DNA of 64,000 nucleotides from a virus, in IMG/VR virus record IMGVR_UViG_3300022752_002834, positions 32,001 to 96,000 of that record, one strand, 5' to 3'. Shown here piece after piece: positions 48,521 to 52,588 of this stretch (within the stretch, counting starts at the first letter, position 1; each line of letters opens with the position of its first letter). Both the position numbers and the translations under genes were made by a program. The notes below the pieces were generated by a model. The model ran no database searches. It saw nothing but the letters and a program-made list of their open reading frames with translations, and had not been told where the DNA came from.

Positions 48521-50863
48521 TTAATAACCGGGTACGAATGCTACAACATCCCACTTACTTCGACCAGCGTGATATGTTGCTGCTAATATATCTGTTGCGT
48601 TTGCTGCTGTACTCCAAGGTAGCGGACTACTTGCTGATGATGGAATTTGGAATTGAGTATCTAAACTAACAGTATGACCACCAGCGCCATCTTGAGTTAT
48701 TCTCCAACGAACCGTAACTCCATCCACAGCATTTGTTGGATTACTTAATGTAGTAGCTCCAGTAAGTGTCATATCAAAAATTTGACCAGTTGATACATCT
48801 GTTCCAACACTTCCACTAACATTACCGTTACTAATTACTGTTGGATAAAGCTGTTTGAATTTGCCAGTTGATGCTGTTGTTGCTCCTATCGCAGTATTGT
48901 CTATAGAACCACCATCAATATCAACCTTACTAAGATCAACTTCACCGGTTCCATTGGGTGTAATAGCTATATTCCCGTTTGATCCTTGATTAATTACTAT
49001 ACTTCCGCTATTTGTTCCACCATTTGTATTTATCGTTAGGTTTCCAGTACCGTTAGTGGTTATTGTGGCGGCAGAATTGCTATCTCCAACTCTTAATGTA
49101 TCGGCATCTATATATACATCTGCGGTTCCGCTTGGTGCTAATACTATATTACCACTAGTACTACTAATAGTAGTAGAGTCTAAGCGTAAACTATCGATAT
49201 TGAATACACCAGTTACATTAAAGTTAGTGCCGTCAAAAGTCGCATTACTTTCACCATTTATTCCGGTACTAGTACCATCACTAGTTAATATTCTGTTATC
49301 ACTAGCATTAGATATTATGGCTCCTCCACCACCCGTAATAGTAAGTGTATTTGATCCATCATTATAAGAGATACTAATACCGCTAGCGCCCACAAGAAAT
49401 CCGCTAGCTCCAACAACATCCTGCACAGCTTCAGTAAAGTCTGTAATATTTGATGAGGTATGGGTGTGACCACTAACACTAACTCCTGTTCCGTTTACTA
49501 ATAGTGTTGAAAAATTACCACTAGACGATGGAACCCACAATGTGCTACCGCTGTTATATTGTAAGAATTGACCATTTGTTACTCCGCTAATAGCAACATT
49601 GTGTAATTCTTCTAGCTCAAAACCATTTTGAATAGTAACTTCGATAATGCCTTGATTATTGTGATTTCTTACTATTTTACCAACAGCAACCATATGATTT
49701 GGAGCACTTGGTTTTGTGGCTGTTATTCCTCCCGCAACAGTTGGACTTAAATATAGTGTACTACCTTCAGCAGCTCCAAATTGATTAGTATTAACATCAA
49801 TTAAAGCTCCAAAAGCAACAACATTTCCGCTATTATTATCAGATATTTGCGTTTGTGTTATACCATAAGTTTTGCTAGAATTACCTTCGTTATTAGCTTG
49901 TGATGGAGTAATAGTTGGCAAGTTTCCATGACCGCCATTAATATAAACAACAGTCATTTTGGGAATAACAGAACCTGTTTGATTAAAACATTGTGTAACA
50001 AGTGATGACGCGCTAGATGCTGCAACACCAGCAGCAGTTATGGTGTAAATTCCAGATGATGCCCCAATAGAGATACCAGATCCTGCAAGTATATCTTTGA
50101 CCGGTAACAATCCACTAACAGAACTATTAAAATTGGTTATATCGGATGCTGTATGAGCGTGACCACTAACACTAACAGAAACATTATTAACATATAATCC
50201 TATTGTAAAATTACCACTACCAGTAACATTTAATAGTGATCCATCAAAAGACAGATTACTTTCGCCATTAATTCCCGTTGATGTTCCATCGCTTGTTAAT
50301 ATTCTGTTGTCAGCATAGTTACTAATTGTAGCGCCGCCACCAGTTCCGCTAGCCGCTGTTGTTTGAATGCTTCCGTCTGGGAAAATTAATCCACTAGAAT
50401 TAATTTTCATATTGTATGCACCAGATCCCGGTAACTCTATTGCTGAATCAAACAAAATATTTGATGCTGTTAAACCGCCATCAGCACTATTTTTAAGATG
50501 ACCGCCCTGCCAATTTAATTCATAACCAATAGCACAATTCAAACTAATGCCACTTTGACCACCAGTATCGTTATCAAATGTTCCTTTTGCTAAACTTGTT
50601 CCGTTACTTAATGATACCCCAATAAATTCTGGAAAATTAGTCGTATTTAAGTCTTGATCAAATGGGTTTCCTCCGACTCCACCAGATCCACCTATTGCAC
50701 TTAAGCTTAACCACGGATTTATACCATCACCAATTTTTAGAACATTGGTATCAACAGCAAAAGCTGGTTCGCCAGATGCTAATACTGGATTTGATGATGT
50801 AAATTCAGCACTAGAGCCTCTTCTTAATTGTATTTGAGAATATTGCCTATTAGAACAAGTCAT
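48521..50863 (-). CDS. Tail fibre-like protein with an Mtd_N/hyaluronidase-type N-terminal anchor
   Basis: IQLRRGS...NPVLASGEPAFAVDTNVLKIGDG..W. Two HxH segments (GHAHT, GHTHT), a duplicated DNRILTSDGTSTGINGESN block, and G/S/T-rich composition. Confidence 0.8.
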   Translation of the reverse strand: MTCSNRQYSQIQLRRGSSAEFTSSNPVLASGEPAFAVDTNVLKIGDGINPWLSLSAIGGSGGVGGNPFDQDLNTTNFPEFIGVSLSNGTSLAKGTFDNDTGGQSGISLNCAIGYELNWQGGHLKNSADGGLTASNILFDSAIELPGSGAYNMKINSSGLIFPDGSIQTTAASGTGGGATISNYADNRILTSDGTSTGINGESNLSFDGSLLNVTGSGNFTIGLYVNNVSVSVSGHAHTASDITNFNSSVSGLLPVKDILAGSGISIGASSGIYTITAAGVAASSASSLVTQCFNQTGSVIPKMTVVYINGGHGNLPTITPSQANNEGNSSKTYGITQTQISDNNSGNVVAFGALIDVNTNQFGAAEGSTLYLSPTVAGGITATKPSAPNHMVAVGKIVRNHNNQGIIEVTIQNGFELEELHNVAISGVTNGQFLQYNSGSTLWVPSSSGNFSTLLVNGTGVSVSGHTHTSSNITDFTEAVQDVVGASGFLVGASGISISYNDGSNTLTITGGGGAIISNASDNRILTSDGTSTGINGESNATFDGTNFNVTGVFNIDSLRLDSTTISSTSGNIVLAPSGTADVYIDADTLRVGDSNSAATITTNGTGNLTINTNGGTNSGSIVINQGSNGNIAITPNGTGEVDLSKVDIDGGSIDNTAIGATTASTGKFKQLYPTVISNGNVSGSVGTDVSTGQIFDMTLTGATTLSNPTNAVDGVTVRWRITQDGAGGHTVSLDTQFQIPSSASSPLPWSTAANATDILAATYHAGRSKWDVVAFVPGY

Positions 50864-51780
50864 TAAAATACCCTTTCTAATGTCCAAGATACTTTTCTTG
50901 GTGGAAAGCCGTTTACATCACTAAATACCCATGATCCGTTTTGGTTTAGCATTTCAGCAGCGTCACGCTCTCTAATCCAAAAACTTCCATCTGGTTGATC
51001 GTGTCGCTTTTCTCCACCGTTCCAATTTCCCCAACTGTTTTGTACTAAAAATAGAGTCTCTTTGTATACTTCGTGTGTATCGTCCATTCCTAACCATGAC
51101 ATAGCGTGTGACCATGATCCAGATCTAGAAGCAATACCATATTTATCTCTTCTTGAAGAAAATCCAGAATTACTGCATACGCTAATAGCATAACCATTAG
51201 CAATAGCATCTCTTGCCTGTTCGACAGTATTTATTAAACTAATTGTTTTTACTTGATGCTTCTTTGCTTCTAAAATTAAATCTTGTGGAACGCCAGTTCT
51301 TCCCCATTTTCCACCTATGGCACTATATTGAGATAAATCATATTCACCATATTTTTGACGTAATAAGATACCACCGTTTTGATTAACAAATCTAGCAGCA
51401 CCAGAACAAGTCATGCCCTCTCCACCATGACCACGCGATCCATAAATAGCTTCTGTCGCCCCTCTTGCTATAAATTCTTCTTTTTGTCCATTGATTATTT
51501 CACAACTGCGAGTAGCATCTACGGCATTTCGGGTAGAATGCGAAACACAGTCACCTTGAACTTGTCTTTCTGATGGTCCAAAAGTTGGATCAAATTTTAG
51601 TAAGTTTTTATACAATAGAGCTAACTTACCTTTGCCGCTACTATAAAGATCATGTGCGGCTATTCCAAACAATGGATGAGGCAATTCACCCATTAGTTTG
51701 TCTAAATCTGCTGGATCACAATATGATCCAATAAAACCGTCTTTGTAAGCTTTTAGTAAATCGCGTGGGTTATTAAACAT
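50863..51780 (-). CDS. Papain-like (clan CA, C1-type) cysteine peptidase
   Basis: Oxyanion Gln and catalytic Cys (QVQGDCVSH), catalytic His (WSHAM), catalytic Asn (VQNSWG) and GSFWI. Confidence 0.85.
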   Translation of the reverse strand: MFNNPRDLLKAYKDGFIGSYCDPADLDKLMGELPHPLFGIAAHDLYSSGKGKLALLYKNLLKFDPTFGPSERQVQGDCVSHSTRNAVDATRSCEIINGQKEEFIARGATEAIYGSRGHGGEGMTCSGAARFVNQNGGILLRQKYGEYDLSQYSAIGGKWGRTGVPQDLILEAKKHQVKTISLINTVEQARDAIANGYAISVCSNSGFSSRRDKYGIASRSGSWSHAMSWLGMDDTHEVYKETLFLVQNSWGNWNGGEKRHDQPDGSFWIRERDAAEMLNQNGSWVFSDVNGFPPRKVSWTLERVF

Positions 51781-51783
51781 AAA

Positions 51784-51993
51784 TCACTTTGTATTATCTT
51801 TAATCCAATTGACTAATGTATTTACGACTATGGCTACTACTGGAACGACCAAAGCCGACGCTGAACCGAGGTCAACGTTAGAAATATGTTCGCCAACGTA
51901 TGTTAGAACAGCAGCTAAACCAACAAGTAAAGCATTTTTACCAACACTAACAACGTCGTTTATATCTACCGAAAAAGCTTTTGAAGTTAACAT
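51784..51993 (-). CDS. Small two-TM holin-like membrane protein
   Basis: 69 aa with two hydrophobic segments (ALLVGLAAVLTYV; ALVVPVVAIVVNTLV) and a short charged C-tail. Confidence 0.55.
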   Translation of the reverse strand: MLTSKAFSVDINDVVSVGKNALLVGLAAVLTYVGEHISNVDLGSASALVVPVVAIVVNTLVNWIKDNTK

Positions 51994-51994
51994 T

Positions 51995-52588
51995 TTATTC
52001 CCCTTTTAGGATTGTGAGACTAACGATAAAACCACCGTGACTATTTTCATTTATTTTATATGGAAAGCCTACTAACCTTACTTTTTCATTATGACAATTT
52101 ATTGTTTCTTTTACAAATTTTCTATTCATTTGTAGGCATGAATTGAACTCTTCGAAGAGTTCTTCTCTTTCTTCTTCTTTTATGTACGTAAGCCAATCAT
52201 ATCCTTCTACACTTGTAACACTGTCCGATGTCAAATCGTAAAAATTACTATTTGTCCATGTTAATCTTCCATGCTCGTCCGTTTCAAATAAAGCAACATT
52301 GTTATAATGTAATGCGGCTTTTGTTCTTTGTTCTATTACTTTTTGTCTAAATTCTATTCTAGAGCAGGTTCCTCTTAGGTCTATTATAGCATCTTTAATG
52401 CTATTTCCACCATTGGTGGTTAGCTCTTTTTTAATGGTATTTACTGATTTTTTAAGATCGTTTTGATTTTCTATTATCTGTATTAGTGGTCTGATGATCT
52501 TTGCCCAACCTATGCTAAAAAATGTAATTAGACCACCAAGCACACTGAAAACTAAAGTAATATTTTCTGGGTTTCTTAGATCTAGCAT
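51995..52588 (-). CDS. Membrane-anchored coiled-coil + PAS-domain protein
   Basis: TM segment ITLVFSVLGGLITFFSIGW, coiled coil with ELTTNGGNSIKD, then PAS-like ALFETDEHGRLTWTNSNFYDLT....VEGYDWLTYIKEEERE. No output domain. Confidence 0.75.
   Translation of the reverse strand: MLDLRNPENITLVFSVLGGLITFFSIGWAKIIRPLIQIIENQNDLKKSVNTIKKELTTNGGNSIKDAIIDLRGTCSRIEFRQKVIEQRTKAALHYNNVALFETDEHGRLTWTNSNFYDLTSDSVTSVEGYDWLTYIKEEEREELFEEFNSCLQMNRKFVKETINCHNEKVRLVGFPYKINENSHGGFIVSLTILKGE

Follow-up and report, generated by a model that had tools for sequence, protein, structure and literature searches.

The 64,000-nucleotide stretch analysed here (the window) corresponds to bases 32001-96000 of IMGVR_UViG_3300022752_002834, a 118,291-bp IMG/VR viral contig that was judged 74% complete. 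On its minus strand lie three closely spaced genes, which encode a membrane protein ending in a PAS domain, a 69-residue protein with two transmembrane (TM) segments (h69) and a cysteine peptidase of the papain type. A first-pass annotation made from the sequence alone had proposed that this trio is a sensor-gated lysis module, i.e. a holin/antiholin regulator tying lysis timing to host physiology, with the protease serving as lysin. The genes lie exactly where that annotation placed them, with 1 nt between the PAS gene and h69, and 3 nt between h69 and the peptidase gene:

51995..52588, minus strand: TM-long helix-PAS protein, 197 residues, start at M12
51784..51993, minus strand: h69, two-TM holin-like protein, 69 residues, hydrophobic segments 14-30 and 45-61
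50863..51780, minus strand: C1A papain-fold cysteine peptidase, 305 residues, without signal peptide, candidate lysin

On balance, we favour the view that the core of the module is a C1A papain-type peptidase that would act on the host envelope and is most likely the lysin of this phage.

The peptidase, the PAS protein and h69

Several lines of evidence identify the peptidase. Q73, C78, H225 and N248-S249-W250-G251, in the order Q...C...H...N-S-W-G, are invariant in 14 sequences with identities down to 47%. A Foldseek search of the PDB with the structural model, the confidence of which is moderate (predicted local distance difference test (pLDDT) 65 overall, 70-90 in the core), returned xylellain, cathepsins K, S and L, papain and actinidin (E 1.5e-7 and weaker), among 256 matches at E<=0.001. 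The Pfam family Peptidase_C1 (PF00112) scores 20.2 bits (E 6.9e-4) and does not reach its cut-off of 20.7; one relative (P0166) has a precomputed PF00112 match, and the peptidase profile found no significant match among PDB sequences. There is no hydrophobic segment at the N-terminus. The earlier description of a cysteine peptidase with complete Gln, Cys, His and Asn catalytic residues and no signal peptide is therefore borne out.

The family is large: at 50% identity, HMMER matches to the peptidase profile fall into 1847 clusters at E<=0.001, of which 716 reach E<=1e-30. Intein-like insertions are present in 41 of the 150 best representatives (two each in 4) and cluster at profile positions 75-85 (20 cases), 225-230 (17) and 250-255 (4), which correspond to C78, H225 and N248. 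Examples are found at 'QGDC' in loci L006/L007 (8834-10876) and L038 (8530-10608), and after 'QSWG' in L142 (1755-3851). Inteins typically occupy conserved sites of indispensable enzymes, and their occurrence at the catalytic site may thus be a sign that the peptidase is one of these; that they sit exactly at the three catalytic residues is a curiosity in itself and provides a useful family marker. A 610-residue peptidase paralog in L185 (10131-11963) reads 'DSGTSHS' instead of 'GDCVSHS' at the position of the catalytic Cys, and may be an inactive pseudo-peptidase.

The PAS protein belongs to a full open reading frame (ORF) of 208 residues (51995-52621), but is read as 197 residues from M12 because 19 relatives start there. 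It has a single hydrophobic segment (residues 10-26), and its AlphaFold2 model (mean pLDDT 81) consists of one long helix (7-94) followed by a b-b-a-a-a-b-b-b domain (99-193, pLDDT ~90) with the five strands that define a PAS fold. LOV/PAS structures come top when this domain is compared to the PDB by Foldseek (RsLOV, 7obz, E 1.1e-5; 288 matches at E<=0.001), and bacteriophytochrome PAS, hERG PAS, NifL and FixL are also matched. Among 20 aligned members of the family, 19 match Pfam PAS_9 (best 5.1e-8) and 16 match Pfam PAS (best 1.4e-8), all at E<=0.1; the window's own protein scores 18.4 bits, under the Pfam cut-off of 22.6. No domain beyond PAS was found at its C-terminus, and the LOV motif around the flavin-binding cysteine was not seen by eye in the sequence. 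The picture of a single TM segment and a terminal PAS domain without output has thus held up, the region described as a coiled coil being modelled as one long helix, and the domain, on which the original proposal hinged, is PAS. By the positive-inside rule, the long helix and the PAS domain are probably cytoplasmic.

Two sets of residues stand out in this protein, which has 440 metagenome homologs. The first is a motif in the long helix, K-E-L-T-T-N-G-G-N-S-I-K-D (residues 54-66), where model confidence dips; I52, K54, E55, T58, N59, G60, G61, S63, K65 and D66 are invariant in 20 sequences with identities down to 30%. The second, in the PAS domain, comprises E102, D104, G107, N113, G129, W132, R141, E147, C151, P176 and G186.

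As for h69, it has the layout of a class II holin, i.e. it is small, has two TM segments and is encoded immediately upstream of a candidate lysin gene. It has no Pfam match at E<=10. Its nearest ESM Atlas clusters, auto-named 'Holin family protein' (0.95) and PF16945 (0.88), are leads only, and a profile search of proteins gave 1156 matches, the 120 listed ones being all from the same clade and none of them named holin.

A conserved module with exported partners

An alignment-based scan of IMG/VR yielded 53 related loci, in 51 of which the PAS-h69-peptidase trio is syntenic, even where the PAS protein is as little as 36% identical. Conservation of the neighbourhood, which the first-pass annotation had left to be checked, is therefore clear. 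The order at the syntenic loci is p147, a sigma-like gene, p210, the PAS protein, h69 and the peptidase. The two exceptions (L053 and L054) have a 222-residue PAS-TM relative beside genes that read as clamp/clamp-loader-like by sequence, without h69 or peptidase. The trio forms the opening part of a larger conserved module, some nine genes long and rich in membrane proteins, the other components of which are as follows:

52663..53295, minus strand: p210, Ser/Gly/Thr-rich protein of 210 residues that leads the module, without Pfam or PHROG family
45225..50887, minus strand: variable tail-fibre-like insertion, with proteins of 788 (Mtd_N), 106 and 822 residues (Asn/Ser-rich repeats) plus two s71 paralogs
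45455-45691 and 45225-45440, minus strand: the tandem s71 paralogs (71/78 residues)
44918..45223, minus strand: exported Cys-rich lipoprotein, with lipobox LIIAG-C and C-terminal CxCKGTG..GDGHKT.CP motif
44631..44921, minus strand: tm96, 96 residues, N-terminal TM segment and helical domain
44189..44662, minus strand: sa157, 157 residues, signal-anchored (TM 15-31), with exported helical domain
43568..44188, minus strand: ct206, 206 residues, C-terminal TM segment (177-193), last conserved gene before the ribonucleotide reductase

A second scan of IMG/VR, with an alignment of fusion proteins, extended this picture to other clades. It returned at least 600 stretches and at least 578 relatives, and the best 80 loci, on contigs of up to 244 kb, were examined. 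A sa157-like gene is found in 76 of these, adjacent to the peptidase gene in 70 and fused to it in one. Also retained are homologs of p210, whose counterpart there likewise heads the module (hhalign probability 99.5%, E 1.8e-22), of s71 (98.7%), of tm96 (94.1%, E 1.3e-7) and of the Cys-rich protein. The slots of the PAS protein and h69 hold a TM plus coiled-coil protein (~115 residues) and a two-TM protein (108-120 residues, with a basic tail). The core of the module therefore consists of sa157 and the peptidase, together with the Cys-rich protein, and the PAS protein and h69 are clade-specific.

How this core might function is suggested by the fusions. Among the 150 best peptidase representatives, 16 have an N-terminal extension of at least 120 residues, which in 13 cases begins with a hydrophobic segment. 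The nine fusions that were read have an N-terminal TM segment, a helical domain of ~120 residues, a linker and the C1 peptidase, to which several add the motif 'C.RCNGTG..GDGH..CP' at the C-terminus and an end with CPPC that resembles thioredoxin; in a tenth (P0477), a lipoprotein signal stands at the N-terminus. The helical domain of the fusions shares homology with sa157 (hhalign probability 97.9%, E 6.1e-13), the C-terminus of one of them (P0414) matches the motif of the window's lipoprotein (BLASTP E 3e-9), and the charges that flank the TM segment, as read from the sequence, place the bulk of the protein outside the cytoplasm. Fusion to a membrane anchor or a lipoprotein signal therefore argues that this peptidase family acts outside the cytoplasm. 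By extension, sa157, the peptidase and the Cys-rich protein of the window would work together, as they would in relatives, where their site of action would be the periplasm.

Prediction of a complex between the peptidase and residues 40-157 of sa157 is consistent with this partnership. The docking score is 0.66 (0.63, 0.66 and 0.73 in three runs), while the best control scored 0.00; the mark used was calibrated on solved complexes, 58 of 80 of which reach it, and on mismatched pairs, of which 2 of 110 do. The runs have at least 91% of their contacts in common, with a partner pLDDT of at least 87, and in the predicted interface the conserved C-terminal tail of the peptidase (293-305) lies on residues 90-132 of sa157. 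The model hence supports binding of the peptidase tail to sa157.

The order lipoprotein-tm96-sa157-ct206 is maintained, and most of 25 relatives of the Cys-rich lipoprotein have a lipobox, some having plain signal peptides or anchors instead. No Pfam family scored above threshold for ct206, and ESM Atlas scores for sa157 were at chance level. The most distant members of the clade have two membrane-protein genes between h69 and the peptidase, and their Cys-rich protein carries a thioredoxin domain. The fibre cassette, identified by its Mtd_N match (E 4.2e-12) and by matches to tail PHROGs, ranges from 0 to ~5.6 kb among relatives and looks like an exchange hot spot for host-range genes. In L022/L023, L025 and L031 there is no cassette or a short one, and the peptidase therefore adjoins the downstream membrane genes in these loci. 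At the other end of the module, p210 is retained directly upstream of the PAS gene in 50 of the 53 loci. Two genes upstream of the PAS gene (window 53373-53846), and likewise kept in 50 of the 53, is a gene for a 157-residue sigma-like protein with weak matches to sigma-70 region 4 and to phage sigma-factor PHROGs; this protein is a possible phage sigma factor for transcription of the module. Promoter and terminator sites in window 43000-54500 were no more numerous than in shuffled sequences.

Lysis and the alternatives

The window has a G+C content of ~35% and two main arms. The plus-strand structural arm encodes a 2376-residue tape-measure protein (PhageMin_Tail) and proteins of 3757, 1711 and 1205 residues, and the long minus-strand arm encodes a ribonucleotide reductase, a RecA-like protein, an IMPDH/GMP-reductase-like protein, glycosyltransferases and the sigma-like protein. 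The peptidase gene is outside the structural arm. Similarity to known phages is scant: the DnaE half matches phage records only at <35% identity, the trio has no match in PHROGs and 10 structural proteins have almost none.

Could another gene of this phage be the lysin? Eleven lysin families of Pfam were searched in the contig and 4 or 6 relatives, 4-5 of which are at least 94% complete (five records each for PF00959 and PF01510, and seven each for PF01464, PF01551, PF01520, PF05838, PF00182, PF13539, PF05257, PF00877 and PF01183), and none scored over its cut-off. The single sub-threshold match was to Amidase_3 (13.3 bits, in G006), and the CHAP and NlpC/P60 profiles had no match in the records searched. 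Four lysin families also gave no match in any of five complete relatives of 229-244 kb, the four giant tail proteins show no lysin domain, and hmmscan of 110 ORFs of a complete relative gave no peptidoglycan hydrolase among the best 25 of 57 families. The earlier remark that the window holds no muramidase or amidase is thus not contradicted, and the search for a canonical endolysin elsewhere returned nothing over cut-off, with 10 near-complete relatives covered; these negatives are, however, those of an insensitive search. Divergent family members can escape a six-frame Pfam search of virus records, so that absence needs a positive control, and here PF00112 was missed in 7 of 7 records that encode the C1 peptidase itself, while the controls for PF05838 and PF00182 were silent.

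A first alternative is that the peptidase is a cytoplasmic processing enzyme, whose role would be the maturation of virion proteins or polyproteins, or the cleavage of proteins of the host, and to which its membrane neighbours would be unrelated. Viral papain-like proteases commonly process polyproteins, the enzyme has no signal peptide and the phage encodes the giant proteins listed above, all of which would fit. Set against this are the fusions behind a membrane anchor or a lipoprotein signal, with their exported thioredoxin-like end, the fact that the constant neighbour and fusion partner is a signal-anchored protein, and the position of the gene away from the structural arm. Moreover, relatives have a ClpP-like protease, the usual head-maturation enzyme, beside the large terminase gene TerL (3 of 5 records), which makes it a better candidate for head maturation than the C1 peptidase, so that the latter is not needed as head protease. 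In L063 (8106-10735, i.e. G003 18105-20734), the ClpP-like gene directly precedes the large terminase, which is followed by a portal-sized ORF of 696 residues. This head-packaging block is missing from the window's incomplete contig. As for dedicated prohead-protease families, S78 was found in 0 of 5 records, as was S77, for which the control was silent. A role in virion maturation, which the first-pass annotation had named as a reading that would undermine its own, has thus become less likely, and we regard cytoplasmic processing in general as highly unlikely.

A second alternative accepts the envelope as the site of action but not lysis as the purpose. The module would remodel the cell surface, cutting receptors or other envelope proteins to prevent superinfection or to stop new virions from being caught on debris. 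The exported and anchored forms indeed define an extracytoplasmic site rather than a purpose, the module sits among genes of early/middle type on the replication strand and tail-fibre cassettes are inserted within it. Furthermore, a second protease points to a wider periplasmic proteolysis: 4 of 5 records encode a 256-residue serine protease of the trypsin family (PF00089, E 1.5e-20) with a signal-peptide-like N-terminus, the gene of which (G000 96051-96821, i.e. L058:51-821, minus strand) lies 51 bases past the end of the window, so that the phage appears to have a second, secreted protease. What speaks for lysis instead is that a signal-less peptidase beside a two-TM protein suits release when infection ends rather than export early on, that very high conservation and catalytic-site inteins suit a core function, and that no other lysin emerged from the family searches, weak as they were. 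Surface remodelling is therefore, in our view, unlikely, although less so than cytoplasmic processing.

Besides the limits of the lysin searches and the existence of the trypsin-family protease, several observations weigh against a lysis module: (i) it shares its strand with the DNA-metabolism genes and is outside any late block, (ii) the peptidase, the PAS protein and h69 had no tblastn match in 50,697 phage records, which leaves them without a cultured relative, (iii) none of 24 h69 relatives belongs to a Pfam holin family, one each matching two holin PHROGs at E 0.29 and 0.49, (iv) PAS-TM or motif proteins of L080/L137/L151 and L053/L054 have non-lysis neighbours, the PAS-TM relative of L080 being encoded between phosphoesterase-like and terminase-like genes (names by sequence reading), (v) the PAS-protein and h69 profiles match none of the best 80 loci of the other clades, and the proteins that occupy the same slots there have no detectable homology to them (hhalign probability 0.5%), and (vi) C1A peptidases are not known to cut peptidoglycan. 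With respect to h69, the two TM segments that had been described are there, but its identity as a holin finds no backing in Pfam or PHROGs.

The link between the PAS protein and lysis can also be approached through its motif. The first-pass annotation had associated such motifs (EL..NGGSS.KD) with small membrane proteins of phage lysis cassettes, and this proved partly right. A pattern scan for the invariant KE..TNGG.S.KD motif found 82 stretches. Outside the clade, 66-residue TM-plus-motif proteins are encoded in five loci, three genes away from a block in which a 169-residue protein is flanked by two small TM proteins, the 169-residue protein matching annotated endolysins of Streptomyces phages; in L086, L098 and L133, a CHAP-like endolysin stands at this distance of three genes. 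In L090, the motif protein comes directly after a 191-residue protein that matches annotated L-Ala-D-Glu peptidase endolysins (M15-type), and in L153 it abuts a 79-residue TM protein, which we take to resemble an r1t-type holin. In L142, a PAS-TM protein of 26% identity is accompanied by a two-TM protein and the intein-bearing C1 peptidase. A PDB sequence search with three neighbour proteins of other loci gave nothing significant, a 199-residue protein of L142 matching 3kw0 ('cysteine peptidase') at E 0.36; this protein may be YiiX/NlpC-P60-like. Motif-bearing TM proteins are hence found beside or near endolysins, but not exclusively in lysis loci.

These data bear on a third alternative, in which the protease module is lytic but the PAS protein is an independent sensor or scaffold, serving for example late transcription or some other process at the membrane, whose position simply happens to be conserved in this clade. 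Other clades keep the module without it and fill its slot with an unrelated TM plus coiled-coil protein, its distant relatives stand beside clamp/clamp-loader or terminase-like genes, and the sigma-like gene is nearby. A functional link to h69 is favoured by the 1-nt spacer and the order shared by 51 of 53 loci, by the recurrence of the same pairing in the very distant L142, and by the stand-alone TM-plus-motif proteins that accompany true endolysins. Independence of the PAS protein is, to us, less likely than not, and that it gates the timing of lysis, although plausible, is about as doubtful. Of the initial proposal, then, the protease lysin gains from the envelope-directed fusions, while the step in which a sensor gates a holin derives from gene position only.

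If the peptidase is indeed the lysin, the following scenario may be drawn. Made without signal peptide, the peptidase would accumulate in the cytoplasm until h69 forms a membrane lesion that releases it, as a holin does for a canonical endolysin. Once outside, its C-terminal tail would, according to the docking model, bind the exported helical domain of sa157. The exported Cys-rich lipoprotein, which bears a thioredoxin domain in relatives, would take part too, as fusions and synteny suggest, and might control the catalytic cysteine or hold it in the reduced state. Candidate substrates would be peptidoglycan peptides or envelope proteins. In the weakest step, the PAS protein, encoded directly upstream of h69, may act like an antiholin and adjust when lysis takes place.

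As to the host, a scan of GTDB with two short conserved patterns, by which other taxa can be missed, found 15 loci, mostly on contigs of metagenome-assembled genomes (MAGs). The MAG labels are mixed (Promethearchaeota, SAR202/Dehalococcoidia, Flavobacteriales, Pirellulales, Aureispira and unclassified 'bacterium'), and these loci are probably mis-binned phage contigs. The only isolate genomes matched are those of two Planctomycetota, Kolteria novifilia Pan216 (L250) and Thalassoglobus neptunius KOR42 (L249), the homologs of which are TM-anchored, 31% identical and in prophage-like surroundings. The L250 homolog is beside fibre-like genes, and the neighbours of the one in L249 are a 96-residue membrane protein and a lipoprotein whose linker is Pro/Thr-rich. 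Both regions look like prophages, which would offer a possible experimental entry point. The suggestion that the host belongs to the Planctomycetota is echoed by these homologs but not established by them: the loci of the two isolates have a G+C content of 58-65%, and planctomycete loci with homologs one of 58-67%, against ~35% in the window.

Parallels with known lysis systems and significance

One parallel is with the S, R, Rz/Rz1 cassettes of the lambda type. As in these, a small two-TM protein directly precedes a signal-less hydrolase, with tight coupling, and the window also encodes a signal-anchored protein and a lipoprotein. The differences are that the hydrolase is a C1A papain-type enzyme, rather than a muramidase, transglycosylase, amidase or known peptidoglycan endopeptidase, and that h69 is in no holin family. 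In two-component spanins of the Rz/Rz1 type, an inner-membrane protein with an N-terminal TM segment and a periplasmic coiled coil binds an outer-membrane lipoprotein through the C-termini of both. Pieces that might correspond to these are present in sa157, with its TM segment, and the lipobox protein, but the predicted partner of sa157 is the peptidase tail, and relatives of the lipoprotein vary in signal type.

Endolysins of the signal-arrest-release (SAR) type, such as P1 Lyz and R21 of phage 21, are tethered to the membrane, and the catalytic cysteine of P1 Lyz is caged by a disulfide. Peptidase relatives resemble them by their N-terminal anchor and, for some, by a CPPC thioredoxin-like end; the window's enzyme is unanchored and its catalytic fold is different. 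By analogy, the signal-less and the anchored, fused forms of the peptidase may parallel canonical and signal-anchored endolysins.

Phage lysins also include cysteine peptidases of the papain-like superfamily, i.e. CHAP, NlpC/P60, Amidase_5, the pseudomurein endoisopeptidases PeiW/PeiP and the N-terminal peptidase domains of mycobacteriophage Lysin A. What sets the window's peptidase apart is that xylellain, cathepsins and papain, all true C1A enzymes, match it far better, and that it has their Q...C...H...N-S-W-G order. In BFVD, phage proteins with C1-like folds were found, one of them of 484 residues and named 'Peptidoglycan binding-like', and LysA/endolysin matches had E values of 3.6e-4 and weaker. 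Xylellain (PDB 3ois), the best structural match (E 1.5e-7), is only ~18% identical and differs by the phage setting, the membrane partners and the conserved C-terminal tail with its predicted docking. The N-terminal extension of the peptidase (residues 1-70), which is modelled with low confidence, recalls C1A proenzymes.

Antiholins and other lysis-timing regulators include RI/RIII of T4, S107 of lambda and LydB of P1. Like them, the PAS protein is a membrane protein next to a holin-like gene, with a soluble domain able to receive a signal; it differs by its relatives, which also occur in non-lysis contexts. We know of no antiholin with a PAS domain. Abstracts of the literature mentioned neither a C1A peptidase lysin nor a PAS-domain regulator of lysis. 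Counting against a C1 lysin, the review PMC10318531 names CHAP, NlpC/P60, Amidase_5 and PeiW/PeiP, but not C1, as lysins among the papain-like enzymes.

For most uncultured large aquatic phages the mechanism of host lysis is unknown, and a recognisable endolysin is missing from many of the genomes. In its widest form, our reading would be that widespread aquatic phages (contigs of ~90-244 kb) have replaced the peptidoglycan-hydrolase endolysin with a multi-part protease machine, made up of the C1A peptidase, a membrane docking protein and exported Cys-rich and thioredoxin partners, and that a PAS protein of this clade ties the time of lysis to the physiological state of the host, a generalisation that we consider rather unlikely as a whole. 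Were the lysin reading correct, however, the implications would be important. The C1A papain type would be a new enzyme class among phage lysins, with a new architecture in which the lysin, its membrane docking partner and exported thiol-redox helpers are split or fused. The reach of such a finding would be considerable (1847 clusters, and at least 578 IMG/VR stretches), since lysis genes could be annotated in thousands of metagenomic phage genomes, which could also become a source of lytic enzymes with an unusual target. Finally, the PAS protein, if it does gate lysis, would be the first sensor-domain antiholin and would allow the coupling of a sensor domain to the timing of lysis to be tested.

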